27,148 nucleotides of DNA, taken from an uncultured Pseudomonadota bacterium (GTDB lineage Bacteria; BMS3Abin14). The notes below the pieces were generated by a model that saw only the letters and a list, made by a program, of their open reading frames with translations, was not told the DNA's origin and did no database searches. A program made the translations under genes and the position numbers. Where the stretch lies: positions 1-27,148 of the forward strand of contig CAYVSA010000027.1 of NCBI GenBank assembly GCA_964454175.1. The letters run 5' to 3'. Numbering within the stretch: the stretch's first letter is position 1; each line of letters opens with the position of its first letter. Below, piece after piece: positions 4,395 to 21,719 of the stretch.

Positions 4395-4430
4395 AAAAAG
4401 AACCCGCCCGCAAAAGGCGGGTATTTTTTT
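4395..4430. terminator. Intrinsic terminator after pckG (possibly bidirectional)
   Basis: AAAAAGAACCCGCC-cgcaaaa-GGCGGGTATTTTTTT. Confidence 0.85.
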
Positions 4431-4543: not shown

Positions 4544-4579
4544 GGTGAGCGTATTGCCGGTGGTAAGCGTTTTGCCGGT
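4544..4579. repeat. 18-bp tandem direct repeat upstream of the AAA/OOR promoter
   Basis: GGTGAGCGTATTGCCGGT and GGTAAGCGTTTTGCCGGT, 16/18 identical. Confidence 0.55.
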
Positions 4580-4619
4580 AAGAAATATAAAATGGTGTTT
4601 ATAAAATGCCGTTTTTTTA

Positions 4620-4648
4620 TTGACATGACCGTGGACCGCAATTATAGT
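4620..4648 (+). promoter_or_regulatory. Sigma70-type promoter of the CDC48-FadR-OOR cluster
   Basis: TTGACA (4620-4625), 17-bp spacer, TATAGT (4643-4648). Confidence 0.85.
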
Positions 4649-4780
4649 GGTCCGACCATCAGGCCACCGTGATTAAAACCTGTAAAACTGAATATAACGG
4701 CATAAACGCGGTGGACAGGTTTTTGGAGTTCATTGGTCTGACCATCATACCAGGTGATCCAACATTGATGGTCAGACCAA
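4648..4780. promoter_or_regulatory. Three FadR/PdhR-type operators TGGTCnGACCA
   Basis: TGGTCCGACCA 4648-4658 (over -10/+1), TGGTCTGACCA 4734-4744, TGGTCAGACCA 4769-4779. They match the FadR-subfamily TGGT-N3-ACCA palindrome, and a FadR-family gene lies in the cluster. Confidence 0.85.
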
Positions 4781-4807
4781 CAAATCACTCTCAGCATCTG
4801 GAAGAAA

Positions 4808-6979
4808 GTGAAAGTCAGACAGAAACCGGAGAAAATAGAGGAAGTGTCGTTGCGAGTTGCCAAAGCCTTTATAGAGGATGAGGGAAAAGGGCTGGCTCGC
4901 CTTGACACGATCCACCTGGAGGGCCTCCGGGCTGTGCCGGGTGACGCCCTCGTGATCTCCGGCCGCGGCTCAACGGTTGCCAGGGCGGCCGAAACCACAA
5001 CCGAGTATACCGGTCAGAACCTCGTGCAGATAGACGGTATCATCAGGGACAACGCCCAGGTTTCGGTTGACGAGTGGTGCACGATCCAGAAAGTAAAAGT
5101 CAAGGCGGCCGAGAGCGTCCTTCTCTCGCCCCTGGAAGGTTCAAGCCTGATCCCCAAGGACGAGGAGATGCAGCATGTCCAGCAGCTCCTTTCGGGACTC
5201 CACGTTGTCATCGGCGACAAGATCCAGATCATCCTGTACGGAACAAGGCCCCAGTTCTTCTTTGTTGACGGAGCCAGTCCAAGGGGTGTTGTTCGAATAA
5301 CTCCCGATACTACTATTCACTTCAAGGCCACGGATGTCGCCCACGAGAAAACCTTGAGGGTCTCTTACGAGGACATCGGCGGCCTTGAAAAGGAGCTGTC
5401 CCTCGTAAGAGAGATGATCGAACTGCCGCTGAAATTTCCTGGCTTGTTCACCACCCTGGGAATAGACCCCCCCCAGGGTGTTTTACTGTCCGGACCACCG
5501 GGAACGGGCAAGACCCTCCTTGCCAGGACGATCTCCAACGAGGTGAGGGCGCATTTTATTCACGTCAACGGCCCCGAAGTGATCCACAAGTTCTACGGTG
5601 AGAGCGAGGCTAAACTGAGAGAAGTTTTCGAAGAGGCTCGCAGAAATGCTCCCAGTATTATCTTCCTTGACGAGATCGATGCTCTGGCCCCACGTCGAGC
5701 CCAGGTTATTGGAGACGTTGAAAAGCGGGTAGTGGCCCAACTGCTGGCCCTCATGGATGGACTGGTCTCCAGGGGTGAAGTTGTCATTATCGGGGCAACG
5801 AACTTGCCGGAGCTTGTTGACCCGGCTCTGCGCCGCCCGGGAAGGTTCGATCGAGAGATAACCATCGGCGTACCCAACAGACCGGGCCGCCTTCAGATAC
5901 TGAAGATCCACTCCAGCAGGATGCCGCTGGCAGAGGACGTGGACCTGGACCACCTGGCCGGGATAACCCATGGCTATGTCGGGGCTGATATCGCCGCCCT
6001 GTGCAAGGAAGCCGGGATGGTCACCCTTCGCCGATTGATGCCGGAGATCAGGTTCGAAGTTGATGACAGGCCGCAGCTTCCCGAGGGCGCTGCCGTAAAA
6101 GTCACAGGTGAAGATTTTCTGGAAGCCTTCAAGAGTGTGGAGCCAACTGCCACGAGGGAGTTCATGACCGAAAGACCCAGGCTCAGATTCAGCGATGTTG
6201 GAGGTCTTGAGGAGATCAAACAGAACCTGAAATCCATAGTGGAACTCCCCATGCGCGGTATATCCACTTTTACCAACTCGAGATTGGGGCCGCCTAAAGG
6301 GGTTCTCTTTACTGGCAGGTCCGGAACCGGAAAGACTCTCATGGCCAGGTCTCTTGCAGGAGAGATGGGCATAGCTCTGATAGTTGTTGATCCTCCCACC
6401 CTTTTGTCCAAATGGGTTGGAGAGTCAGAAAAAGGGTTGAGGGAGGTTTTTAAACGGGCCAAGCAGGCGTCACCCTGCATTCTTTTCCTGGACGAGATAG
6501 AGGCTATCGCGTCTGCCCGTTCTGCCGAGTATTCAAGCGATGTCTCCCAGAGGGTCGTGAGCCAGCTCTTCAGGGAACTTGACGAACTACACGGCTCCCT
6601 CGGGGTGATCGTCGTGGCAGCCACAAACCGTATTGACCTTGTTGAACCTGCCCTGCTGAGAGCAGGCCGTTTTGATTATATTATCGAATTTCCTCTTCCA
6701 GGTGAGAAGGAGAGGGAGGAGATCTTTTCCACATATATGCAGTCGATTCCTTTCGAAGCCGACGTGGATCTGCACCTTCTTGCTGAAAGGAGCGAGGGGT
6801 GGACGGGGGCCGATATAGAGGCTCTTTGCAAGAGGGCGCTCATGCTGGCACTTGAGGAATTCATGGATAACGGGGGAGAGTCGGATCTCTCATTGTGTGT
6901 GATCACATCCAGGCATTTTGATGGGGCGTCATCGCAGCATTCATTCGCTGCCGTTGATCCCTCACCGGTAAAGCACTGA
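4808..6979 (+). CDS. CDC48/p97/VAT-family double-ring AAA+ ATPase
   Basis: CDC48-type N domain (LRVAKA..DEGKGLARLD). D1: YEDIGGL, GPPGTGKT, KFYGESE, FLDEID, ALRRPGRFDR. D2: FSDVGGL, GRSGTGKT, KWVGESE, FLDEIE, ALLRAGRFD. The GTG start is uncertain. Confidence 0.93.
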   Translation: MKVRQKPEKIEEVSLRVAKAFIEDEGKGLARLDTIHLEGLRAVPGDALVISGRGSTVARAAETTTEYTGQNLVQIDGIIRDNAQVSVDEWCTIQKVKVKAAESVLLSPLEGSSLIPKDEEMQHVQQLLSGLHVVIGDKIQIILYGTRPQFFFVDGASPRGVVRITPDTTIHFKATDVAHEKTLRVSYEDIGGLEKELSLVREMIELPLKFPGLFTTLGIDPPQGVLLSGPPGTGKTLLARTISNEVRAHFIHVNGPEVIHKFYGESEAKLREVFEEARRNAPSIIFLDEIDALAPRRAQVIGDVEKRVVAQLLALMDGLVSRGEVVIIGATNLPELVDPALRRPGRFDREITIGVPNRPGRLQILKIHSSRMPLAEDVDLDHLAGITHGYVGADIAALCKEAGMVTLRRLMPEIRFEVDDRPQLPEGAAVKVTGEDFLEAFKSVEPTATREFMTERPRLRFSDVGGLEEIKQNLKSIVELPMRGISTFTNSRLGPPKGVLFTGRSGTGKTLMARSLAGEMGIALIVVDPPTLLSKWVGESEKGLREVFKRAKQASPCILFLDEIEAIASARSAEYSSDVSQRVVSQLFRELDELHGSLGVIVVAATNRIDLVEPALLRAGRFDYIIEFPLPGEKEREEIFSTYMQSIPFEADVDLHLLAERSEGWTGADIEALCKRALMLALEEFMDNGGESDLSLCVITSRHFDGASSQHSFAAVDPSPVKH

Positions 6980-7014
6980 CCTTGGTTGGCCCGGACAGGA
7001 TGGGAAAGGAATAG

Positions 7015-7749
7015 ATGTTCAAGCCGGTAAAGAAGACAAGGGTATACGAAGAGATCGTCCAGAAGGTCAAGGGGATGGTCGAACAAGGGATGCTCATATC
7101 GGGAGACCAGCTTCCCTCGGAAAGAGAGCTTTCAGAGGTTTTTAAGGTCAGCAGATCTTCCGTCAGAGAGGCACTCAGGGCCCTGGAGAGCCAGGGTTTT
7201 CTCGAGAGTCGGCAGGGAGACGGCACCTACATTGCGAGCCGCCCGGTGGAAGACCTCGTCGACCCCCTTGCTGAAATTATCTTTACCGAAAAGGACGGCC
7301 AGATGGAGCTCTTTGAAATGCGGCGGCTTATTGAGCCTCAGCTTGCCTGCCTCGCAGCTGAGCGAGCCACTCCGCAGGATATTGCCGAGATGGAGGAGAT
7401 CCTGAAGACGCAGCAGGATCTGGTGAGCGCAGGGGAGCCCGGTACTGATATCGACAAGCTGTTTCACGACAAGCTTTCAGCTGCGACGAAAAACACGATA
7501 CTCATTCGAATAATGGACACAGTAATGGACTCCCTCACTGAAAGTCGTGAGAAGTCACTACAAACAGAAGGAAGGCCCTGGAAATCCCTTTCACGCCACA
7601 GGGAGATCCTGGATGCCATCAAAACGGGGGATAAAGAGCGCGCGGCAAATATAATGCGCGAGCACCTCGAAGACATTGAGGCTGGTCTGTTTACAGTGGA
7701 AGAAAGGAGGAACCTCGAGACCAAGACCAGAAAGGGGGGCGATAGCTAG
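7015..7749 (+). CDS. GntR-family regulator, FadR subfamily (PdhR/LldR/GlcC-like)
   Basis: wHTH GDQLPSERELSEVFKVSRSSVREALRAL. FCD domain with RRLIE, DKLFH, N and HREI residues. Confidence 0.95.
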   Translation: MFKPVKKTRVYEEIVQKVKGMVEQGMLISGDQLPSERELSEVFKVSRSSVREALRALESQGFLESRQGDGTYIASRPVEDLVDPLAEIIFTEKDGQMELFEMRRLIEPQLACLAAERATPQDIAEMEEILKTQQDLVSAGEPGTDIDKLFHDKLSAATKNTILIRIMDTVMDSLTESREKSLQTEGRPWKSLSRHREILDAIKTGDKERAANIMREHLEDIEAGLFTVEERRNLETKTRKGGDS

Positions 7750-7803
7750 AATTATCTTATCGCTTTTTTTGTACGACTATTTTCGATCAAAGGAGGAAAA
7801 GTT

Positions 7804-8418
7804 ATGGCCGAAGTCTATGAGATTACAATCTGGGCCCGCGGGGTTATCCAGGATATGGAGGGACGTCATCTGTCGCTCCTCATGGCGAACTCAGCGGACA
7901 AGGACGGCAAGTTTGTCCAGGCGTGGGACAATTACGCCGATCTGCCGGACAGAGTTGGAGTTCCTCTTCGAAAGTATGCCCGCATCAGCGACGAAGAGAT
8001 AGAGATGCGCTACGACTACGAAAACCTGAACCCCAACATGTCCGTAGTTATGGATGACACCATTGTGAAGGGCATTGATATCCTGTACGGCATGCCCAAG
8101 GGCGGAGTTCTTGTTGTCAACACGAAGAGAACTCCCGATGAGATCCTAAAGTTCATACCTAACAAGGATATTCTTTCGGCCCTGGTCTGTGTGGACGCCG
8201 AAGGCATTTCAGGTGCCATGTCCATGGAGGATGTCGACTTTATGGGATCCGAAGGTGGTGTGGAAACTGCCGAAGTCGGAAAGGGTCTATCCGCGCCGTT
8301 AGTTGGTGCTGCGGCCAAGGCTGTCGACCTGCTGACCCTGGACAGCCTGGTGGCTGTTGCCGCCAACAAGGAAGGCGTCAAGGCTGGTTACGAGCAGGCT
8401 ATGGTGAAAGCCCTTTAG
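7804..8418 (+). CDS. Oxalate oxidoreductase-like 2-oxoacid:ferredoxin oxidoreductase, gamma subunit (domain III)
   Basis: ITIWARGV, QAWDNYADLPDRVGVPLRKYARIS, VLVVNTKR and GSEGG closely resemble the N-terminal part of the Moorella OOR delta chain as recalled. SD AAGGAGG. Confidence 0.85.
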   Translation: MAEVYEITIWARGVIQDMEGRHLSLLMANSADKDGKFVQAWDNYADLPDRVGVPLRKYARISDEEIEMRYDYENLNPNMSVVMDDTIVKGIDILYGMPKGGVLVVNTKRTPDEILKFIPNKDILSALVCVDAEGISGAMSMEDVDFMGSEGGVETAEVGKGLSAPLVGAAAKAVDLLTLDSLVAVAANKEGVKAGYEQAMVKAL

Positions 8419-8435
8419 ACAAGAAGGAGATGATC

Positions 8436-8786
8436 ATGAGCAAAAAGAAGTATTGTGAAAAGTTCAATGTTCCGGAGAACCTCCAGGTTCCGATGGGCGC
8501 CTGCATCAAGGCCCCTGTCAAGGAACAGAGGATGATGATAACCGGAAACTGGAGAACTGTGCGTCCCGTTATCGACCACGAGAAATGCACGCTTTGCCTG
8601 AACTGCTTCATCTACTGTCCCGACGGCAGCTGGCACCTTGACGAGAAGGAAGAGCGAATGGTCTGGAACGCAGATTTCTGCAAGGGCTGCCGTATTTGCA
8701 TTAATGAATGCACAGTTGACGCTCTTTCAGGTGTTGACGAACTGGAGTTCAAGGGCGGCGTTGTCCGGCTGGATGTCCCATTTTAA
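8436..8786 (+). CDS. oorD: Oxidoreductase delta subunit, 2x[4Fe-4S] ferredoxin domain
   Basis: TGNWRTVRPVID, CTLCLNCFIYCP, CKGCRICINEC. SD AAGGAG (8424-8429) favours ATG 8436 over 8430. Confidence 0.88.
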   Translation: MSKKKYCEKFNVPENLQVPMGACIKAPVKEQRMMITGNWRTVRPVIDHEKCTLCLNCFIYCPDGSWHLDEKEERMVWNADFCKGCRICINECTVDALSGVDELEFKGGVVRLDVPF

Positions 8787-8804
8787 TTTAGGAGGGCTAC
8801 GAAA

Positions 8805-9998
8805 ATGGCGAAAGAAATGTTTTTGGCCGGCTGTTCCGCTGCAGCGTATGGAGCGAAGCTGGCACGAGTGGAAGTTATATGTTCATACCCCATCCGTCCT
8901 TACACAGGCATCATGATGGAGCTCTCCAAGCTGGTCGCTAACGGGGAACTTGATGCTGAGTTCGTTCATGGCGAGGGAGAGCATGCACAGGTTTCAGTGA
9001 CCTACGCTGCCTCCGCCGCTGGTGCAAGGGCTTTCACAGGCAGCTCCGGTGTAGGCGTGGCCTATGCCATGGAGTGCTACTCCCCGGCCGCAGGCGGACG
9101 CCTGCCCTGTCAGATGTCCATCGCTGACCGTGCACTCGATCCTCCGGGAGACTTTGGGTCGGAGCACACTGACGCTATGAGCATCCGTGACCAGGGATGG
9201 ATCATGGGCTGGGCCGAGACGCCCCAGGAAGTCCTGGACAACACCATCCTGTACTACAGGATAGGTGAGGACCACAGGGTTCTGCTGCCCCAGTTCTGCT
9301 GCCAGGACGGATACTTTGTATCCCACATCCCTGACAAGGTTATCATGCCAGAACAGTCCCAGGTGGATGAGTTCCTCCCACCCTACACGCATCCCCATCC
9401 CCTGGATCCAACAAGGCCCATCTCACATGGTCCGCAGATCTTCCCCGACCAGGGCCCTGCGATCGACCTTCAGAGAGCACAGGCAATGGTGGATACACCA
9501 CCGGTTATCGCTGAGATAGTCGGCGAGTTCAACGAAGTGTTTGGGCGCGACTACAGCCCCTTCCTGGACGAGTATAGAACTGACGACGCTGATTTTGTCT
9601 TCTTCATCCAGGGTGGACATGCAAGGACAGCCCGCTACGCAGTGAACCACCTGCGCGACAGGGGCATCAAGGCCGGTTTGGTCAAGCTGCGGTTTGTGAG
9701 GCCATTTCCAACAGAAGCCGTTGCTGAGACCCTCTCCAAGTTCAAGGCTGTCGGTACTATCGAGACCAGCACATCTTACGGTGGAGCCATGAAGGGTGGA
9801 AACCTCATCCATGAGGTTCGCTCTTCCCTTTACGACGTTCCAAATCCACCAGTAGTTACCTCTTTCATGGCCGGTCTGGGTGGAGAGGTTGTCTCCCTTG
9901 AGGAGTTCTACAGCATGGCAAAGGTCCTCTCCGAAGCCGCAAAGAAGGGTTCGGCTGACCAGTATGTCTACTGGCTGAACTTCGACAATGGAGTGTAA
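8805..9998 (+). CDS. oorA: Oxalate oxidoreductase-like alpha subunit
   Basis: SYPIRPYT (Arg31, where PFOR has YPITP), GEGEH (Glu59), DRALDPPGDFG (Arg109, Asp116) and GPQ (Gln211). Numbering is identical to the Moorella OOR alpha chain as recalled. Confidence 0.88.
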   Translation: MAKEMFLAGCSAAAYGAKLARVEVICSYPIRPYTGIMMELSKLVANGELDAEFVHGEGEHAQVSVTYAASAAGARAFTGSSGVGVAYAMECYSPAAGGRLPCQMSIADRALDPPGDFGSEHTDAMSIRDQGWIMGWAETPQEVLDNTILYYRIGEDHRVLLPQFCCQDGYFVSHIPDKVIMPEQSQVDEFLPPYTHPHPLDPTRPISHGPQIFPDQGPAIDLQRAQAMVDTPPVIAEIVGEFNEVFGRDYSPFLDEYRTDDADFVFFIQGGHARTARYAVNHLRDRGIKAGLVKLRFVRPFPTEAVAETLSKFKAVGTIETSTSYGGAMKGGNLIHEVRSSLYDVPNPPVVTSFMAGLGGEVVSLEEFYSMAKVLSEAAKKGSADQYVYWLNFDNGV

Positions 9999-11045
<1,047 letters not shown>

Positions 11046-11100
11046 TCAGGGTTTGAGGGATTAATCATCCTGGATCTACTCATCTTGTAAAGCGTCAGAA

Positions 11101-11132
11101 AGCAGGCCCGAGCTGAAGTGCCCGGGCCTGCT
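11101..11132. other. GC-rich hairpin between oorB and tctC
   Basis: AGCAGGCCCG/CGGGCCTGCT perfect 10-bp arms with no U tract. Confidence 0.5.
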
Positions 11133-11307
11133 CGCTGGCCAGCACGGCTTATATACTTCGTGAATTTCAAGAAGGCCGTGTGTTAGAATCTCGTAATTGC
11201 CGAGGGGGCAAAATCGGTTCCATCTATGAAAAGGAGGTGACGGTTTAAAGGTGGATAAATGAGGGGGGAAAACGATTTGCAGTTTTACTGCAAGGAGGGA
11301 TTAGACC

Positions 11308-12285
11308 ATGAGAACAATGAGATCACATTTTTCCATTTTGCTTGTGACGATACTTGTCGTAGCAAGCGTGTTTCTCTTCGGAGAAATTGCCGAGGCATGG
11401 CCCCAGAGGCCTATTGAGTTCGTCATCTCTGCAGGCGTCGGAGGTGGTGCTGACAAGTATGCCCGGTTCCTTACAGGGATCAACGTAAAGCAGAAGTACG
11501 TCGACGAGGCGATTCTTCCCGTAAACAAGCCCGGCGGCGCAGGCGCAGTGGCCATGAACTACGTCCTCTCCCAGAGGGGAAACGGCCACATGATGCTGAT
11601 CACCCTGAACAGCTTCCTCACCACACCGCTGTTCCAGAACCTTCCGTTTACATTCCGCAATTTCACACCAATTGCTCTTCTGGCCCTGGACAACTTCCCG
11701 CTGTGGGTACATAAAGACGCCAAGTGGAAGACCATCCAGGAGTTCATTGCCGATGCCAAGACCCGGAACATCCTCGTTGGTGGAACGGGTTCAAAGCAGG
11801 AAGACGAGATCGTCTGGAGAGCGATTGAGAAGATCGCTGGTACAAAGAAGTTCAAGTACGTGCCGTTCAAGGGCGGCGGTGCTGTTGCCAAGGCCCTCGT
11901 GGGTAAGCACATTGAGGCTTCCGTGAACCAGGTCAGTGAGGCCGGGGGCTTTTTCCCCGAGTTCGTAAGGCCGCTGGTAGTCTTCCAGGACGATCACCTG
12001 GACGTTGCGGGCCTCGAAAATGTCCCCACAGGCAAGGAGAGCGGTATCGACTTCAGCTACAACATGATGAGAGCAATATTCGCTCCCCCCGGTATCTCCA
12101 AGGACGCCAAGAAGGGGCTGGTCGGTCTCTTTAAGGATATTTCCAAGGATGCCGAGTGGCTGAAGTTCGCCTCGGACAAGGGTCTTAAGGCTACCTTCAT
12201 GACAGGCGACAAGCTCATGAAGTTCGCTGAGGACTTCGAGGCAGTTCACAAGGACATCATGAAGAAGCAGGGTTGGATCAAATAA
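11308..12285 (+). CDS. tctC: Tripartite tricarboxylate transporter substrate-binding protein
   Basis: Signal peptide ending AEA/WPQRPIEF, GGGADKYAR, VNKPGGAG, YVPFKGGG, RAIFAPPG (Bug/TctC motifs). Confidence 0.93.
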   Translation: MRTMRSHFSILLVTILVVASVFLFGEIAEAWPQRPIEFVISAGVGGGADKYARFLTGINVKQKYVDEAILPVNKPGGAGAVAMNYVLSQRGNGHMMLITLNSFLTTPLFQNLPFTFRNFTPIALLALDNFPLWVHKDAKWKTIQEFIADAKTRNILVGGTGSKQEDEIVWRAIEKIAGTKKFKYVPFKGGGAVAKALVGKHIEASVNQVSEAGGFFPEFVRPLVVFQDDHLDVAGLENVPTGKESGIDFSYNMMRAIFAPPGISKDAKKGLVGLFKDISKDAEWLKFASDKGLKATFMTGDKLMKFAEDFEAVHKDIMKKQGWIK

Positions 12286-12324
12286 CTTCAGAGGAGTGAA
12301 CAGCACCTCAGAAACGTGATTCGT

Positions 12325-12357
12325 GGTTGTGAGGGCCGATGATCGGCCCTCACAACC
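12325..12357. other. Perfect 16-bp inverted repeat between tctC and tctB
   Basis: GGTTGTGAGGGCCGAT-g-ATCGGCCCTCACAACC. Confidence 0.75.
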
Positions 12358-12383
12358 TGATAGATCACCCTGGGAGGTCTAAA

Positions 12384-12854
12384 TTGAAAAAAGGTGAGTT
12401 AATTACAGCGGTAGTTTCCATAGTCATATCGCTTATAGCCATTATCGAAGCAGTTCGACTTGGTTTCGGATGGGAAACTGACGGGCCTCAGGCTGGCTTT
12501 GCCCTCTTCTGGCTGGCTATGATGATGTTTGTATGCTCGGCCGGGCTCCTTGCCCTGGCTGTGAGATCAAAGGATGAAGAGGAGTTCTTTGTGAGCAGGG
12601 AAGGAAAGATGGAGGCCATTCGAATAGCCTTCACTTCCGTGCTGGTGACAATCGGGATCATTTTCATGGGAGTCTACATCTCCACGTTGGTCTACTGCGC
12701 CCTGTTTTCCCGCTGGCTTGGAAAACATAGATGGCCAGCAGTAATAGCGTTTTCCATCATCACTACTCTTGCCATTTTCTTCGGGATGGAGAAGGGGCTG
12801 AAGATCCCCCTGCCCAAGAGTATGTTCTACAATAAAGGATTGTTTTGGTTTTAG
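12384..12854 (+). CDS. tctB: TTT small permease subunit
   Basis: 4-5 hydrophobic segments, GWETDGPQAG, C-terminal LKIPLPK. TTG start at 12384 follows SD GGGAGG; the ORF-track start 12339 lies inside the hairpin. Confidence 0.88.
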   Translation: MKKGELITAVVSIVISLIAIIEAVRLGFGWETDGPQAGFALFWLAMMMFVCSAGLLALAVRSKDEEEFFVSREGKMEAIRIAFTSVLVTIGIIFMGVYISTLVYCALFSRWLGKHRWPAVIAFSIITTLAIFFGMEKGLKIPLPKSMFYNKGLFWF

Positions 12855-13088
12855 CGGGAGTTACGAGTCCAACCCTGCCGCCCTCAGGGCGCTGCGGGAC
12901 TGTTGCCAGAACGATTCAACGGTATCAGATCTTTTGATAAAAAGAGCCTCCGGCTCGCTCTTTAGGAATTCAAAGTGTTAAATAATTCGGGTTTTTGGCC
13001 CCGACTTGACCGTTGATAACTTCAACAGCGAAGGCTTGTAAAATGGATTTTCACGGCTTTAGTAAAGACATCGTATCGGGAGGTATTA

Positions 13089-14612
13089 ATGGAAACTCTA
13101 GCTAACCTGATGGTCGGTTTCGGGGTTGCGATGCAGCCTATGTCAGTGATTATGATGACCCTGGGGCTGTTTCTGGGACTTGCGATAGGTGTTCTCCCAG
13201 GACTCGGCGGTACCGCCGGCGTTGCCCTGCTGCTGCCCCTGACCGTTCTAGTTCCCAAGGAAGTTGCCATCATCTTTCTTGCTGCCATCTACTGGGGAGC
13301 TCTTTATGGAGGGGTTATTACTTCAATACTTTTTGCTATCCCCGGCGAACCATGGTCAGTTGCACTTATTTTTGATGGTTATCCCATGGCGAAAAAAGGT
13401 CAGGCTGGTCTTGCCCTGTCTGTGGCATTCCTGTCCTCCTTTGTCGGCATCATGGTCGCTGCGGTATTCTTTGTGGCCTTTGCAATGCCACTTGCTCTTT
13501 TCGCCCTGAGATTCGGTCCTCCGGAAATGTTTGCCATCATGATGCTCGCTTTCAGCACATTTGTTGGCCTGGGCACCGGTGGTGCATTAAAGACCCTGGT
13601 CAGCACATCCTTCGGGCTCATCCTCACTATGGCAGGCCTGGACGTAGTTACCGGTCAACCCAGGTTGACCTTCGGAACATTTGCCTTTATGTCCGGATAT
13701 CACTTTGTTCCGGTAACCATCGGCCTTTTCGGGATCGGCGAGATCATGATCGATGGTGAGGAACGGTTCAGCACCCAGATCAAGGAAGTCATTCAGGCCA
13801 AGGTGGGAATGCAGGACATCTGGCAGGGTATGAGGGAGATCAAGAAACATTTACCCCTGACCCTTTTCAGCGCATTTATGGGTTTTTTCGTGGGCATCCT
13901 GCCAGGAACTGGGGCCACACCGGCTTCCTTCCTTGGCTACGGTATTGCCAAACAGTACTCCAAACATCCTGAAAAATACGGAGAGGGTTGTATCGAAGGT
14001 ATTCTGGCGCCGCAGGCCGCGGCGAACTCCGCCGGAACAGGCGCCCTTCTTCCCATGATCTCCCTGGGAATTCCCGGTTCCCCCACGGCGGCCGTTCTTC
14101 TGGCCGGTTTATACATGTGGGGGCTCTGGCCTGGACCGAGGCTGTTTCTTGAAGAGCCGGTTTTTGTATGGGGCCTGATCGCCAGCCTGTTTTTAGCTGG
14201 TTTCGTGTGCCTTATCATCTGTCTTTTCGGGACGCCACTTCTTGCGTCCATCATGAAGGTACCGTGGGGGCTTCTCACGCCCATCATCGTCATTGCATGT
14301 TTCGTGGGAAGTTACGTTATGCGAAACCTGATGTTCGACGTCTGGTGCACTCTGATTTTCGGCCTGGTTGGATACTTCATGAAGAAGTTAAAATACCCTC
14401 TGGCCCCACTTGCAGTGGCCCTTGTACTTGGTGAAATGACGGAGAGGTTCCTCAGACAGGCACTGATCATCGGTGACGGTTCATTTTCCATATTCTTCAC
14501 GAGGCCTTTGTCGGCAATTTTCATGGTTATCGCCATTTTGCTTTTCGCTCTGCCGGCGTTCAAGCTGATAAAGGACAAGATGAAGGATAGTGGAGCCGAA
14601 GCCCAGGCGTGA
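13089..14612 (+). CDS. tctA: TTT large permease subunit
   Basis: GVLPGLGG, YGGVITSILFAIPGE, DGYPMA, GILPGTGAT, LGIPGSPTAAVLL, LWPGP, FFTRPLS. Confidence 0.95.
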   Translation: METLANLMVGFGVAMQPMSVIMMTLGLFLGLAIGVLPGLGGTAGVALLLPLTVLVPKEVAIIFLAAIYWGALYGGVITSILFAIPGEPWSVALIFDGYPMAKKGQAGLALSVAFLSSFVGIMVAAVFFVAFAMPLALFALRFGPPEMFAIMMLAFSTFVGLGTGGALKTLVSTSFGLILTMAGLDVVTGQPRLTFGTFAFMSGYHFVPVTIGLFGIGEIMIDGEERFSTQIKEVIQAKVGMQDIWQGMREIKKHLPLTLFSAFMGFFVGILPGTGATPASFLGYGIAKQYSKHPEKYGEGCIEGILAPQAAANSAGTGALLPMISLGIPGSPTAAVLLAGLYMWGLWPGPRLFLEEPVFVWGLIASLFLAGFVCLIICLFGTPLLASIMKVPWGLLTPIIVIACFVGSYVMRNLMFDVWCTLIFGLVGYFMKKLKYPLAPLAVALVLGEMTERFLRQALIIGDGSFSIFFTRPLSAIFMVIAILLFALPAFKLIKDKMKDSGAEAQA

Positions 14613-15053
14613 TCCTGATTTACCTTTACGGGTTAAGGGATACAGATATTTATTGTACACGGTAAAGTTAATGAAGTTGAACCGATATGGAACGAGGTGG
14701 AAAAAGCATCATGGCAGATCACAAATTGTTTTCTCAACTCAGTTGGATGGCAAATGCCACCTTGAACCATAATGAAATTTCCGGCACAGAGGGGCGGCCA
14801 GACGGTTCGCCAGTGACAGGCATACAGTGCCGCCCCTCATTTTCTCACTGATAGATCTCATGAGTCCTGCAAAAACAATCCCTGTGACAGGTGGACCGGG
14901 TCCGTGGCAGTAAAAAGGCCTGAAAAAGGCAACCTCAAGCTGCCGGAAGGCCATGGATCAATTATGCTGAGATCTGCCAGGTTCGAATCGCAATACAAAT
15001 AGGGGCTGGGAGCCCGATCAACCTCATTTGCACTCCAAGGGAGGGGAGCACCG

Positions 15054-16397
15054 ATGGAACCAACTCAGATAGTCACAGCTGTAATTTTCGCTATCACCAT
15101 ACTTTTTATCATCATCAGGAAAATTGACAGCGTCGTTGCAGCTCTCCTGGGAGTGGCAGCGATGGTTGTCGCGGGAAGCATGACCGAGGTCCAGGCTTTC
15201 ACATTTGTGGACTGGGATGTCATCATGATCCTGATAAGCGTGTGGCTCATTGCCGGTTATTTTGGAAAGACGGGGATCCCGGAGTACATGGCGGACAGGA
15301 CCCTTCGCTTCTCGAAAGGCAATATTGCTCTATTCGTTACACTGATCGGGTTCCTTGCAGGGATCATCTCCATGTTCATCGACAACGTGGTAGTCGTCCT
15401 TATGCTGGCACCCATTATTTTTCATATCCGTAAGCTCTATGGTTTCTCCGCAACAGGTCCGATCCTTTTTATCGGGCTGTGTTCCAACTTCATGGGAACC
15501 GCCCTTCTGCTGGGTGATCTGCCTCCCCAGATGCTCCACAGCGTTTCGGGCATCGAGTTCGCCGGGTTCATATGGCACTCTGGACGGCCATCATCACTGC
15601 TCATACTGACTGCAACGTATATAGTCGTCTGCCTGTTCTTCTATTTCAAGTTCCTCAAATCGCCCCTTTCGGCATGTGTGCTCGATGAGGCGGCGGCCCA
15701 TGAAGCGGCCCAGCAGACTCAGGGCCACATAAAAGACAAACGGGTCGCCATCATCGCAGTGGGAGGGTTCCTGCTAACTATTCTGGGCATGTCCTTCAGA
15801 CAGGTGATCGGCATGAAACTGGGTTTCATCGCCTTTGCCGGTGCCCTTCTGCTGGTCCTGGCCTTTGAGATCCTCAGGGAACCGCTGGGCCTCGAAATAC
15901 CCGACCTTGAACACATGCTTCAGGAAATTGAGTGGTCAGCCATCGGTTTTTACGTGGCTCTTTTCGCCCTGGTGGGAGGACTGGAGCACACCCACATCCT
16001 CGAGATAGTCGCTAACTGGCTCATACCTTTTATTAAACATGGACTGTTGACCGGTACGTCGGTCCTTTACTGGGTTACAGCTCCGATAGTTGGGATCGTG
16101 GAACATGATGCATACATCCTGACGATCCTGTATGTTATCCGGGACCTGGGTCACTCGCAGGCTCTGAACACGTGGCCCTATTACTGGGCGCTTGTCTGGG
16201 CAGGTACACTGGGAAGCAACCTGACCATAGCGGGTGCGCCCGCTCTGTACGTTGCCCTGTCCATGGGTGAGAAGGAAGACGGCGAAAAATTCTCCCTGAA
16301 GGAGTTCTTCTCCTACACGGTGCCTTATGTCATAATTTCACTGGTTGTGTGTTACGCACTCCTTGTTCTTGTATGGGTGTTGCCCTTCACAAGGTAG
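15054..16397 (+). CDS. Ion-transporter superfamily (ArsB/NhaD/SLC13-like) anion permease
   Basis: About 11-12 TM helices; VDWDVI, SMFIDNV, SNFMGTALLLGDLPP, GTLGSNLTIAGAPA (IT-family repeat motifs). Confidence 0.85.
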   Translation: MEPTQIVTAVIFAITILFIIIRKIDSVVAALLGVAAMVVAGSMTEVQAFTFVDWDVIMILISVWLIAGYFGKTGIPEYMADRTLRFSKGNIALFVTLIGFLAGIISMFIDNVVVVLMLAPIIFHIRKLYGFSATGPILFIGLCSNFMGTALLLGDLPPQMLHSVSGIEFAGFIWHSGRPSSLLILTATYIVVCLFFYFKFLKSPLSACVLDEAAAHEAAQQTQGHIKDKRVAIIAVGGFLLTILGMSFRQVIGMKLGFIAFAGALLLVLAFEILREPLGLEIPDLEHMLQEIEWSAIGFYVALFALVGGLEHTHILEIVANWLIPFIKHGLLTGTSVLYWVTAPIVGIVEHDAYILTILYVIRDLGHSQALNTWPYYWALVWAGTLGSNLTIAGAPALYVALSMGEKEDGEKFSLKEFFSYTVPYVIISLVVCYALLVLVWVLPFTR

Positions 16398-16501
16398 CTG
16401 CAGCCCGGGTGTGATCTGCCCCGGGTTTGACCAGGGTCGTGTCCGGCACCAGTCATTGCGGGTCGCAAAGTAAGTACTGCTCCCGGACACGACCCCTACT
16501 G

Positions 16502-16534
16502 AAAACAATGGGCTTTGGCCCATTGTTTTTTTTT
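16502..16534 (+). terminator. Intrinsic terminator after the anion permease
   Basis: AAAACAATGGGC-tttg-GCCCATTGTTTT followed by further T residues. Confidence 0.85.
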
Positions 16535-18714: not shown

Positions 18715-21381
18715 CTAAGCGACAGAATAATCGGCGAACTTCTTGGGCTTCTTCTTCCTCAGAGTGGCCTGGGCGGCAGCCAGTCTCGCAACCGGCAGCC
18801 TGAAGGGGGAGCCGCTGACGTAGGTGAGGCCAACAAGGTAGCAGAATTCAACAGATTTGGGATCGAGCTGTTCTCCGCAGATCCCCATCTTCATGCCCGG
18901 TTTGATCTTCCTGGAGCTGTCGATGGCCATCTGCATGAGGAGGCCGACGCCCTTCTGGTCGATGGTCATGAATGGGTCATCTTCGAAAATACCCTGTTCA
19001 ACGTAAAATGGCAGGAACCTTCCCGCGTCGTCCCTGGAAAGGCCGTACAGTGTCTGAGTGAGATCGTTCGTACCGAAGGAATAAAAATCAGCCTCTGGTG
19101 CTACTGTGTGAGCAAGAAGCGCGGCCCTTGCTATCTCGATCATCGTTCCCACGTCGTACGGGATCTTGACCTTGTATTTTTTCTCAACTGCGGTGGCAAT
19201 ACGAATAGTCATCTTCCTCAATACGATCAGCTCATTAACGTCAGCTATGAGAGGGATCATGATCTCCGGGATCGCCTTAATCCCCTTCTTTGCCGACTGG
19301 CAGGCTGCCTCCATAATGGCCTGGACCTGCATCTCGTAGATCTCGGGATAGGTGATGGCGAGCCTGCATCCGCGGTGACCGAGCATGGGGTTGAACTCCC
19401 TGAGGGCCTTATTCCTCTCAGCAAGCCTCTTGTAGGGGACACCCATGTCTTTGGCGATCTCGCGAAGTTCAGCGTCTGTCTTGGGCAGGAACTCGTGAAG
19501 CGGTGGGTCCAGGAGGCGGATCGTTACTGGAAGTCCGTCCATGACCTTGAATATCTGATTGAAATCCTTCCTCTGCATGGGCAGGATCTTCTTGAGGGCC
19601 GCTCTCCTGTCGCTCTCTTCATCTGCAAGGATCATCTCACGGACCGACTGGATCCTGTCTCCTTCAAAGAACATGTGCTCTGTTCTGACAAGCCCGATAC
19701 CCTCGGCACCGAACTTGAGTGCCATGCGGGCATCGGTGGGTGTGTCTGCATTGGCCCTGACCCCAAGCTCCCTGATATTATCGGCCCACTTCATGATGGT
19801 GTTGAAATCGCCGGTCATCTCGGGAGCCACGAGTGGTACCTGACCCTTGATGACTTCGCCTGCCGTGCCGTCCAGGGTTATGAAATCACCCTCCTTGACG
19901 ATCAGGTTCCCGATGTTGAAGTTCTTTTTCTTTTCGTTGATGTTTACCGGGGTGCACCCTGCTACGCAGGGTTTACCCATGCCCCTTGCAACGACGGCTG
20001 CATGGGATGTCATACCTCCGCGGGCTGTGAGTATTCCCTGGGCCGCGTCCATACCGCCGATGTCCTCGGGGGATGTCTCAGGACGGACCAGGATCACGGG
20101 CTTGTTTTTTGCGGCTGCTTTTTCAGCGTCCTCAGCCGAGAATACCACCTTGCCTACGGCAGCTCCAGGCGAGGCCGGCAGGCCTTTGGCGATGACTTTG
20201 TAATCAGCCTTGGGGTCCATCATAGGGTGCATCATCTGCTCGAACTGGTCCGGGTCGATCCTCATGACCGCTGTTTCCTTGTCGATCATACCCTCCTTCA
20301 CCATCTGGATCGCGATCTTGAGGGAAGCCGCGGCAGTCCTCTTGCCAACTCTGGTCTGAAGCATATAGAGTTTTCCATCCTGAACGGTAAACTCGATATC
20401 CAGCATGTCCTTGTAGTGCTTCTCGAGCTTGTTGTAGATCCTGTCAAGTTCCTTATAGGCGGCCGGCAGCTGCTTTTTCATCTCCTTGATGTGGAGAGGC
20501 GTCCTGATCCCGGCAACGACATCCTCGCCCTGGGCGTTCACAAGATATTCGGCGAAGAACTGCTTCTTTCCTGTTGAGGGATCACGGGTAAAGCCGACTC
20601 CGGTGCCCGAGTTATCGCCCATGTTGCCGAAGACCATTGCCTGCACGTTACAGGCTGTTCCCAGATCGTGTGCTATGCTGTTCAGGTTCCTGTAGGTGAT
20701 TGCCCGCTCGCCGAACCAGGAGTCGAAAACTGCGTTGATGGCAAGCCTGATCTGCTGAAGAGGGTCCTTTGGGAAATTCTTGCCGGTCTCCTTGCGGTAG
20801 ATCTTCTTGAACTCGTCGGTGAGGGCCTTCAGATCGGCAGCTGTAAGATCCGTGTCTTCTTTTGCCTTCTTTTTTTTCTTCATCTTTTCGAGAGCATTTT
20901 CAAACAGCATCCTGTCAATACCCATTACCGTAGTGCCGAACATGGTAATGAGCCTTCGGAAGGTGTCCCAGGCAAAACGATCGTTTCCGGTTTTATCAAT
21001 GATAGCTTTGATCGCAGTGTCGTTAAGGCCAAGGTTGAGCACCGTATCCATCATTCCGGGCATGGAGAACTTCGAACCCGACCTTACGGACAGGAGAAGC
21101 GGATTTTTTGGGTCCCCAAGCTTCATGCCCATGGACCTCTCGATCTTTTTGAGATTTGAAACGACCTGGTCCCACATGCCCGCCGGGTACTTATTCCCTT
21201 TGTCGAAATATGCGTTGCAGGCCTCGGTTGTTATCGTAAAACCGGAGGGTACCGGGATCTTCAGGTTGGTCATGTTGGCCAGCCCGGCCCCCTTGCCGCC
21301 GAGGAGGTCCTTCATCTTCGCACTGCCGTCCGCTTTTCCGTCACCAAAATAATAGACATACTTTTTCTTTTTGCCTGCCAT
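18715..21381 (-). CDS. ppdK: Pyruvate, phosphate dikinase
   Basis: LLGGKGAGLA, SVRSGSKFSMPGMMDTVLNLG, NAQGEDVVAGIRTP, phospho-His GGMTSHAAVVARG, RLLDPPLHEFLP, EFNPMLGHRGCRL, SFGTNDLTQ, GICGE. Start ATG 21381 (MAGKKKKYVY) follows SD GGAGG. Confidence 0.97.
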   Translation of the reverse strand: MAGKKKKYVYYFGDGKADGSAKMKDLLGGKGAGLANMTNLKIPVPSGFTITTEACNAYFDKGNKYPAGMWDQVVSNLKKIERSMGMKLGDPKNPLLLSVRSGSKFSMPGMMDTVLNLGLNDTAIKAIIDKTGNDRFAWDTFRRLITMFGTTVMGIDRMLFENALEKMKKKKKAKEDTDLTAADLKALTDEFKKIYRKETGKNFPKDPLQQIRLAINAVFDSWFGERAITYRNLNSIAHDLGTACNVQAMVFGNMGDNSGTGVGFTRDPSTGKKQFFAEYLVNAQGEDVVAGIRTPLHIKEMKKQLPAAYKELDRIYNKLEKHYKDMLDIEFTVQDGKLYMLQTRVGKRTAAASLKIAIQMVKEGMIDKETAVMRIDPDQFEQMMHPMMDPKADYKVIAKGLPASPGAAVGKVVFSAEDAEKAAAKNKPVILVRPETSPEDIGGMDAAQGILTARGGMTSHAAVVARGMGKPCVAGCTPVNINEKKKNFNIGNLIVKEGDFITLDGTAGEVIKGQVPLVAPEMTGDFNTIMKWADNIRELGVRANADTPTDARMALKFGAEGIGLVRTEHMFFEGDRIQSVREMILADEESDRRAALKKILPMQRKDFNQIFKVMDGLPVTIRLLDPPLHEFLPKTDAELREIAKDMGVPYKRLAERNKALREFNPMLGHRGCRLAITYPEIYEMQVQAIMEAACQSAKKGIKAIPEIMIPLIADVNELIVLRKMTIRIATAVEKKYKVKIPYDVGTMIEIARAALLAHTVAPEADFYSFGTNDLTQTLYGLSRDDAGRFLPFYVEQGIFEDDPFMTIDQKGVGLLMQMAIDSSRKIKPGMKMGICGEQLDPKSVEFCYLVGLTYVSGSPFRLPVARLAAAQATLRKKKPKKFADYSVA

Positions 21382-21719
21382 TCTCATCCTCCCTGATCCA
21401 AGTGTTGAGTAGTCTGGAACGTCAAATTCGGCCTGTAATTCACGATTTACCCAAAATCGACACTCCGCGGTCAGAGGTGAAAACCTCTGCCAGCCTCCCC
21501 ATGATCCTGAACACAAACCGAGTTCCAGGACCTTGATCTGTACGGTATTCTTGAAGCTCCCCTCCTGCCCCCAGCAGGATTCCAAATGAGGTCGTACTCT
21601 AGCATTTATCGTCAGATAAAGCTAATGAAATCAGTGGTTTCATGGGGAAAAATGAGTATGAAGCACTGATTTTTTCGGACTGGTAAACTGCAGAAAGTCA
21701 CGTCGGCCTGAACACAGGC

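Follow-up and report, generated by a model that had tools for sequence, protein, structure and literature searches.

Introduction

Much carbon is stored as oxalate in plants, in fungi and bound to minerals, and the anaerobic breakdown of oxalate is usually discussed in terms of the oxalyl-CoA decarboxylase route or of a single acetogen enzyme. The oxalate oxidoreductase (OOR) family is already known, with curated models and naming in many database records, and the OOR genes of Moorella thermoacetica reportedly lie beside genes for a GntR regulator, an AAA ATPase and a major facilitator superfamily (MFS) carrier. Here we describe a cluster of ten genes on a 27,148-nt stretch of DNA from an uncultured Pseudomonadota bacterium (assembly GCA_964454175.1, contig CAYVSA010000027.1); we refer to this whole stretch as the window. 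We suggest, with a probability of about 0.7, that the region is a module for anaerobic oxalate catabolism, with a four-subunit oxalate:ferredoxin oxidoreductase at its centre and equipped with a regulator, TctCBA uptake and a Cdc48 partner.

One paper describes bacterial Cdc48 homologues outside the actinobacteria as sporadic in occurrence, as nested within the archaeal homologues and as probable acquisitions from Archaea, and gives them no function (PMC6017811). The same paper treats VAT and Cpa as proteasome partners and the HbYX motif as the C-terminal proteasome-docking motif of archaeal Cdc48, which Cpa lacks (PMC6017811).

The oxalate oxidoreductase genes

Ten plus-strand open reading frames (ORFs) run from 4808 to 16397 in the ORF list of the window, and Pfam and NCBIfam searches place them in the families named by a first-pass annotation of this DNA, namely Cdc48, GntR/FCD, four OFOR-type (2-oxoacid:ferredoxin oxidoreductase) proteins, TctC, TctB, TctA and CitMHS:

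4808 to 6979, plus strand: Cdc48/VAT-type double-ring AAA+ ATPase, 723 residues from GTG (Pfam, NCBIfam)
7015 to 7749, plus strand: GntR-family regulator with FCD effector domain, FadR subfamily (Pfam)
7804 to 8418, plus strand: OOR gamma-like subunit (domain III), corresponding to Moorella delta over its N-terminal two thirds
8430 to 8786, plus strand: OOR ferredoxin-like (delta-like) subunit (domain V) with two 4Fe-4S motifs, corresponding to Moorella delta over its C-terminal third
8805 to 9998, plus strand: OOR alpha subunit (NF045791)
10065 to 11045, plus strand: OOR beta subunit, binding thiamine pyrophosphate (TPP) (NF045792)
11308 to 12285, plus strand: TctC-type substrate-binding protein (Pfam TctC, 85.7 bits)
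12339 to 12854, plus strand: TctB small membrane subunit (Pfam, 49.7 bits)
13089 to 14612, plus strand: TctA large membrane subunit (Pfam, 463.2 bits)
15054 to 16397, plus strand: CitMHS / ion-transporter-superfamily anion permease (Pfam CitMHS, 173.8 bits)

Judged by their sequences, and in agreement with the first-pass annotation, the genes between 7804 and 11045 encode an OOR; among characterised enzymes, that of M. thermoacetica is its nearest relative. OOR models are the top NCBIfam match for all four proteins, and alpha passes NF045791 (597 bits, cut-off 500), its score on the best pyruvate synthase model being 312. The Moorella OOR chains of PDB entry 5c4i are also the best solved relatives of all four: alpha matches 5c4i_A (E 6.9e-158, 529 bits; the next structure, a pyruvate:ferredoxin oxidoreductase, gives 4.8e-65 and 223 bits) and beta matches 5c4i_C (E 8.9e-150), while the gamma-like protein aligns with residues 13-207 of 5c4i_B (E 1.8e-49) and the ferredoxin-like protein with residues 227-314 of the same chain (E 3.9e-23). 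The proteins carry Pfam TPP_enzyme_C and POR_N domains, with two CxxCxxCxxxC motifs in the ferredoxin-like protein and, in beta, cysteines 32, 35, 60 and others plus GDGG.

The literature-curated OOR residues given in a survey of 2025 are Arg31 and Asp116 in alpha, Asn143 in beta and Glu154 in delta (PMC12654022). The window keeps all of them, as R31 (in YPIRP) and D116 of alpha, N151 of beta and E150 of the gamma-like protein, Asn151 aligning with Moorella Asn143 and Glu150 with Moorella delta Glu154. Arg109 and Phe117 of alpha, which we presume to be OOR substrate-site residues too, are likewise present, and Arg31, Arg109, Asp116 and Phe117 are invariant across 13 aligned alpha sequences. 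The enzyme would oxidise oxalate to two CO2 without CoA, its electrons passing to a ferredoxin encoded elsewhere.

Relatives of the OOR alpha subunit were collected by an alignment-based scan of one genome per species, in which 551 loci were confirmed. The best 80 of these were compared, with locus counts taken from tblastn of the window proteins against them; the Moorella OOR locus is not among the 80. A greedy longest-ORF clustering, contaminated by antisense ORFs in GC-rich loci and undercounting families, was used to look for additional families and for no count. Each of the 77 loci with both a gamma-like and a delta-like gene has them as separate genes (in the other 3 of the 80 one or both are absent), and a search for a fused delta found none in any of these 77. 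The four-subunit form is therefore the usual one, and a fused delta as in Moorella is exceptional. The first-pass annotation had spoken of a subunit architecture different from the characterised one; the difference from Moorella stands, but the split is the rule among relatives rather than a peculiarity of the window, and it is a variant of architecture, not of chemistry. Two loci labelled Betaproteobacteria (L019:13161-14921 and L032:13268-15478) hold a second, distant OFOR alpha/beta pair, at 27-33% identity, placed after the OOR genes and before a downstream Cdc48 gene.

Promoter, operators and regulator

The following elements precede the first gene of the cluster:

4620 to 4648, plus strand: sigma-70-type promoter TTGACA-17-TATAGT, 11 of 12 consensus positions
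4648 to 4658, unstranded: operator 1, TGGTCCGACCA, abutting the -10 hexamer
4734 to 4744, unstranded: operator 2, TGGTCTGACCA, in the leader
4769 to 4779, unstranded: operator 3, TGGTCAGACCA, 29 nt 5' of the GTG start

The promoter is the best among 11 promoter-like sites between 4200 and 17000, a count unremarkable in itself, since shuffled sequences gave 8.2 +/- 2.7. The palindrome TGGTCNGACCA occurs in exactly three exact copies in the 27-kb window, all inside 132 bp (4648, 4734 and 4769); a search that tolerates one mismatch yields 4 matches, compared with 1.09 +/- 1.01 in shuffles, and 4 was reached in 1 of 100 shuffles. Operators 2 and 3 sit within one perfect 15-nt inverted repeat. All three are of the TGGT-N3-ACCA palindrome type of FadR-subfamily GntR regulators, and the presence of a promoter and three FadR-type operators ahead of ten co-oriented genes, as first annotated, is confirmed. 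When the window is aligned with L003 and L001, the two closest loci that hold the promoter region, the -35 block TTATTGACA is unchanged, and this block and all three palindromes form invariant islands in an otherwise 70% identical alignment. Just 5' of the -35 hexamer there are tandem direct repeats, one of 18 nt in two copies (4544-4579) and one of 14 nt (TATAAAATG...) in two copies (4586-4613), the latter pair being AT-rich and UP element-like.

The operators are conserved beyond these immediate neighbours. Among the related loci, the motif TGGTNNNACCA has 31 copies in 25,332 bp of sequence that precedes the first gene of each cluster, versus 10 in the other 948,375 bp, an enrichment of about 116-fold; an exact copy lies upstream in 24 of the 59 evaluable loci, and several further loci have one-mismatch copies. 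The window shares its layout of three operators, of which the first is at the promoter and the other two are in the leader, only with its nearest relatives L001 and L003. The regulator has clear Pfam matches (PF00392 GntR, 71.2 bits with a cut-off of 27; PF07729 FCD, 109.7 bits with a cut-off of 24.3), and its nearest NCBIfam models, NanR, LldR, PdhR and GlcC, every one score below cut-off. Its earlier assignment to the FadR subfamily with operators of its own thus gains the support of both Pfam and the related loci. We propose that the GntR/FCD protein represses the promoter at 4620-4648, that it would do so by binding one palindrome at -10/+1 and two in the leader, and that it would let go of them upon binding oxalate or a close derivative. 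The sigma-54 signals that had also been reported find no such support: a consensus scan gave 38 matches, no enrichment over 27.1 +/- 5.1 in shuffles, and no good plus-strand site within the intergenic regions of the cluster.

Uptake genes and the extent of the module

The genes for TctC, TctB and TctA lie side by side, all scoring above their Pfam cut-offs, and would form a tripartite tricarboxylate transporter (TTT). TctC, whose N-terminus reads by eye as signal-peptide-like, has only distant solved relatives, and the TTT binding proteins found among them take their names from other ligands, terephthalate for example. In the 45 loci with at least 4.5 kb present beyond OOR beta, where transporter type was scored, TctA follows in 28, an MFS carrier in 11, both in 0 and neither in 6. 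A single MFS carrier was scanned, that of L075 (Clostridium aromativorans); it reaches 431 bits on TIGR04259, the model for oxalate/formate antiporters (cut-off 335), and 311.9 bits on an L-lactate transporter model (cut-off 320). Because TTT and OxlT-like MFS carriers replace each other at the same position, the TTT is credible as the oxalate uptake route, and the annotated claim of an uptake route different from the characterised one fares well. This replacement suggests that TctCBA takes up oxalate, in which case TctC would capture oxalate in the periplasm and TctBA would import it.

The tenth gene has a different standing. Its CitMHS domain spans residues 16-382 (cut-off 31.9 bits), no specific NCBIfam model passes, and its similarity to VcINDY is only weak. 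The survey of alpha relatives finds the CitMHS permease in just 4 of the 80 loci (L001, L005, L010 and L020), and does not support its inclusion in the module by the first-pass annotation; it is probably co-transcribed with the cluster, as a lineage-specific extra.

Four further elements bear on the limits of the transcript:

4402 to 4422, plus strand: intrinsic terminator after the phosphoenolpyruvate carboxykinase (PEPCK) gene, 7-8 pair GC-rich stem plus T run; upstream boundary
11092 to 11143, plus strand: GC-rich hairpin without a U tail in the interval from OOR beta to tctC, -35.2 kcal/mol, z -3.56
14613 to 15053, unstranded: non-coding gap of 441 bp, where relatives hold an extended short-chain dehydrogenase/reductase (SDR) gene
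16501 to 16530, plus strand: intrinsic terminator, 13-pair stem plus T run; downstream boundary

The gap at 14613-15053 is one place where the window departs from its relatives. An extended-SDR gene (Pfam Epimerase, about 315 residues; for example L001:15912-16871) follows the transporter, whether TTT or MFS, in 30 of the 80 loci, and in L001 and L010 it lies between tctA and the CitMHS permease. No SDR remnant was found in the window by tblastn or blastn, the best tblastn match (E 0.21) lying elsewhere in the window. The window module may therefore be a reduced one, the SDR gene being missing. In four Deferrimicrobiaceae-like loci (L012:16856-17602 and three others) a gene for a TerC/YjbE-family membrane protein comes after the SDR gene.

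A single ten-gene transcript is plausible. The first-pass annotation had seen no U-tailed terminator until 16502, and the strong one is indeed at 16501-16530; before it, the plus strand has terminator-like short stems at 6463, 6652, 6872 and 14127, all within ORFs, and a weak 5-pair stem at 16347 (terminator-like sites number 20 in total, versus 12.8 +/- 3.3 in shuffles). Within the cluster there are non-coding gaps of 262 bp (11046-11307) and 234 bp (12855-13088) besides the one of 441 bp. The hairpin at 11092-11143, in place of which relatives have other, unrelated GC-rich palindromes, may be a processing or stability element and could give enzyme and transporter messages different levels.

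It is quite possible, if somewhat short of even odds, that the module is smaller than ten genes, with Cdc48, GntR and the four OOR genes as its core, the TTT separately tuned, and CitMHS an unrelated passenger served by a promoter of its own within the 441-bp gap. The rarity of the permease speaks for such a division, as do the gap ahead of it, left by loss of the SDR gene, and the hairpin and 262-bp gap that part OOR beta from tctC; moreover, the identity of the TTT proteins to the window tracks that of OOR weakly (Spearman 0.44-0.53), and the TTT genes are upstream or on the other strand in some loci. However, outside the ORFs there is no U-tailed plus-strand terminator between 4650 and 16500, the weak stem at 16347 excepted, L001 and L010 keep the order tctA, SDR, permease, and the sole promoter-like sites near CitMHS (15198 and 15379) fall within its ORF.

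The Cdc48-type ATPase

The first gene of the cluster encodes a canonical member of its family. The protein has Pfam matches to CDC48_N (51.9 bits, cut-off 35.1), CDC48_2 (24.7 bits, cut-off 22.4) and, twice, AAA, and with 799.6 bits it falls 3 bits short of the cut-off of TIGR01243 (802.65); it matches yeast Cdc48 at 5e-207 and Thermoplasma VAT at 3e-181. Its Walker A and B motifs read GPPGTGKT / IIFLDEID and GRSGTGKT / ILFLDEIE, and each ring has one aromatic pore loop (KFYGESE and KWVGESE). The C-terminus, ...PSPVKH, is without an HbYX motif, and the 12 three-residue endings that are most frequent in 44 ATPase relatives all lack a penultimate tyrosine. In the alignment of the window protein with these 44, the majority fraction is 0.55-0.61 for the N-domain and 0.65 for ring D2, and the C-terminal tail is not conserved. 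The GTG start at 4808 is backed by N-terminal conservation with L003, L001 and full-length relatives; the database copy of this protein has 709 residues, implying a start at TTG 4850, 14 residues later. Close homologues bear only the public names "AAA family ATPase", "CDC48 family AAA ATPase" and "transitional endoplasmic reticulum ATPase".

Among the 60 loci with at least 3.3 kb present upstream of the gamma-like gene, where order was scored, a Cdc48 gene accompanies OOR in 57, just upstream in 55 and downstream in 2; the order is Cdc48-GntR in 35, GntR-Cdc48 in 17, Cdc48 alone in 3 and Cdc48 downstream in 2, with GntR alone in 1 and neither in 2. The linkage persists with either transporter type and without GntR. 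Identity to the window, compared across 59 loci, is correlated between Cdc48 and OOR alpha (Spearman 0.83) to a degree similar to that among the OOR subunits themselves (0.80-0.90), with TctA at 0.44. Because the linkage is near-universal, we propose that the Cdc48-type motor is a dedicated OOR partner, which would assemble, remodel, or reactivate and rescue the enzyme, most likely without a part in general proteolysis. The idea of rescue draws on the analogy with AAA+ activases and on a 2017 paper whose title reports suicide inactivation of OOR by pyruvate.

We consider it unlikely that the ATPase is instead an unfoldase for protein quality control at large, one that accompanies the cluster as a matter of history and does not act specifically on OOR. 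Such a role would suit a canonical Cdc48/VAT homologue in a cluster without an adaptor or protease gene (no proteasome gene is found in the window), and it would suit the sporadic, probably archaeal origin of non-actinobacterial Cdc48 genes noted above; but it sits poorly with a linkage that recurs in 57 of 60 loci under labels spanning many phyla and remains when GntR or the transporter changes, with the place of Cdc48 in the operon, where it comes first or second behind the same operators, and with an N-domain conserved about as well as ring D2 across the 45 sequences.

Weighing the oxalate assignment

A number of observations weigh against the reading of this region as an oxalate module with a Cdc48 partner, and we set them out together. 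Beta reaches 583 bits on NF045792, 7 bits short of its cut-off of 590, and the two parts of delta, at 215.2 bits (N-part) and 87.6 bits (C-part), are both below the cut-off of 230 of NF045790, although this cut-off was derived from the fused protein and is beyond the reach of either half. The substrate, the inducer and the transported solute are predictions, the cluster has no gene for a ferredoxin acceptor, and it is missing the SDR gene of 30 of the 80 related clusters; the terms "complete" and "self-contained", applied to it by the first-pass annotation, are too strong for the last two reasons. No exact operator lies upstream of the first gene in 35 of the 59 evaluable loci, and a literature search, judged by title and abstract start, found no TTT system for oxalate. 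For the ATPase, linkage is the one line of evidence behind the proposed role, and shared descent alone could yield part or all of the correlation between Cdc48 and OOR identities. Finally, the long gaps and the strong hairpin make the single-transcript idea no more than plausible.

An OFOR for another small acid (glyoxylate, pyruvate or another dicarboxylate), imported by the TTT and resembling OOR through ancestry, would account for the sub-threshold beta and delta scores, for the near miss of the relatives' MFS carrier on the L-lactate model, for the ligands after which solved TTT binding proteins are named and for the SDR gene of many related clusters, but we regard it as highly improbable, since alpha scores nearly twice as high on its OOR model as on any other OFOR model, alpha Arg31, Arg109, Asp116 and Phe117, beta Asn143 and delta Glu154 (Moorella numbering for the last two) are all kept, and the MFS carrier passes the oxalate/formate equivalog.

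The sub-threshold scores have a practical side as well, in that the beta and split delta genes of the common OOR form fall just below current equivalog cut-offs. Public names of OOR homologues are mixed, JGI and some NCBI records saying OOR and others pyruvate ferredoxin oxidoreductase. The forecast of the first-pass annotation that automatic pipelines would call this enzyme pyruvate synthase is half right, with alpha passing its OOR equivalog and beta and the delta halves falling short of theirs.

Host and flanking genes

Labels among the 80 loci include unclassified Proteobacteria, Deferrimicrobiaceae, NC10/Methylomirabilota, Myxococcales, Anaeromyxobacter, Betaproteobacteria, Syntrophales, Syntrophobacter, Nitrospirota, Thermodesulfovibrio, Bacillota (including Clostridium aromativorans), Atribacterota, Opitutaceae and others. 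By alpha identity the closest among them are L003 (87%), L004 (86%) and L001 (84%), all metagenome-assembled genomes (MAGs) labelled Proteobacteria or Pseudomonadota bacterium, and Deferrimicrobiaceae MAGs come next (72-78%). The host therefore probably sits among diderm anaerobes near these Proteobacteria- and Deferrimicrobiaceae-labelled MAGs, with no finer placement; the earlier suggestion of a diderm anaerobe fits both these nearest relatives and the signal-peptide-like N-terminus of TctC.

Upstream of the cluster lie thiC (501-1952), a Usp gene and the gene for GTP-dependent PEPCK, and downstream of it come genes for gamma-glutamyltransferase (GGT), pyruvate phosphate dikinase (PPDK; other strand) and a Liv/Urt-type ABC transporter. 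The flanks of L003, L004 and L001 match those of the window (thiC-Usp-PEPCK or GGT), and PPDK, GGT, Usp and PEPCK stay near the OOR cluster in relatives, in varying order. Directly 5' of thiC there is a TPP riboswitch (RF00059, 409-503, plus strand, 73.9 bits with a gathering score of 54.3), an ordinary one for that gene, though it is 4 kb away from a cluster for a TPP-dependent enzyme. The PPDK ORF (18715-21585, minus strand) probably starts later than given, since about 73 residues precede its TIGR01828 match.

Significance and comparison with known systems

Taken together, the comparison indicates a CoA-independent OOR route, in its four-subunit form, across many uncultured anaerobic lineages and with a fixed partner set. 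We would go further only tentatively, to a proposal that we hold to be doubtful as a whole, in which Cdc48 is a dedicated OOR assembly or reactivation factor and TctCBA an oxalate TTT, both within a widespread oxalate-oxidising module. If this were true, bacteria would have their first case of a Cdc48-family motor linked to one metabolic enzyme, the proposal would provide a function for the sporadic 'archaeal-type' Cdc48 genes of non-actinobacterial bacteria, and TctCBA would be the first TTT transporter for oxalate. With at least 551 related loci, mostly from uncultured anaerobes, CoA-independent oxalate oxidation would also have a larger role in anoxic soils and sediments than Moorella alone suggests.

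The most novel point is the link between OOR and Cdc48. A literature search that had the primary OOR papers outside its reach found no description of the four-subunit form as common, of a near-obligate Cdc48 partner, of the TTT/OxlT-like swap or of the conserved SDR, and, among the papers listed, none joining "oxalate oxidoreductase" with CDC48 or "tripartite tricarboxylate", while one on Thermoanaerobacter kivui PFOR joins it with AAA; under the same limit, of the locus tags Moth_1587 to Moth_1596 it found only Moth_1591 and Moth_1592, used in one work as BLAST queries. A 2010 paper on OOR reportedly places genes for a regulator, for an AAA ATPase and for an MFS carrier next to those of the Moorella enzyme, and part of the cluster findings may for this reason be in print already.

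The closest described system is M. thermoacetica OOR (EC 1.2.7.10; PDB 5c4i, 5exd and 5exe), which belongs to the same OFOR subfamily and with which alpha, beta and both delta halves align end to end. The Moorella enzyme consists of three polypeptides with a fused delta, whereas the predicted window enzyme has four, the cut falling between domain III and domain V, and the Moorella host is an acetogenic Firmicute, whereas the window host is probably a diderm relative of the Deferrimicrobiaceae-like MAGs. In uptake, the OxlT-type oxalate/formate MFS antiporters of TIGR04259 type hold, in 11 of 45 clusters, the position after beta that TctCBA has in the window, with presumably the same task. OxlT is, however, an MFS exchanger, whereas the window encodes a putative binding-protein-dependent tripartite secondary transporter, and OOR makes no formate for exchange.

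The regulator shares with FadR-subfamily GntR proteins the GntR winged helix and FCD domain, and its gene lies inside the operon that it presumably controls; it differs in that no named NCBIfam model reaches cut-off. As for the ATPase, archaeal VAT/Cdc48 and actinobacterial Cpa have the same N-domain and two AAA rings, and Cpa, like the window protein, is without the C-terminal HbYX motif; yet VAT and Cpa are presented as partners of the proteasome (PMC6017811), and the window gene sits in a catabolic operon. Enzyme activases such as Rubisco activase and CbbX offer an analogy, since they too are AAA+ motors with a genetic link to a single metabolic enzyme subject to dead-end inhibition, although their AAA+ clade and architecture are unlike those of the Cdc48-type ATPase that may attend oxalate oxidoreductase here.

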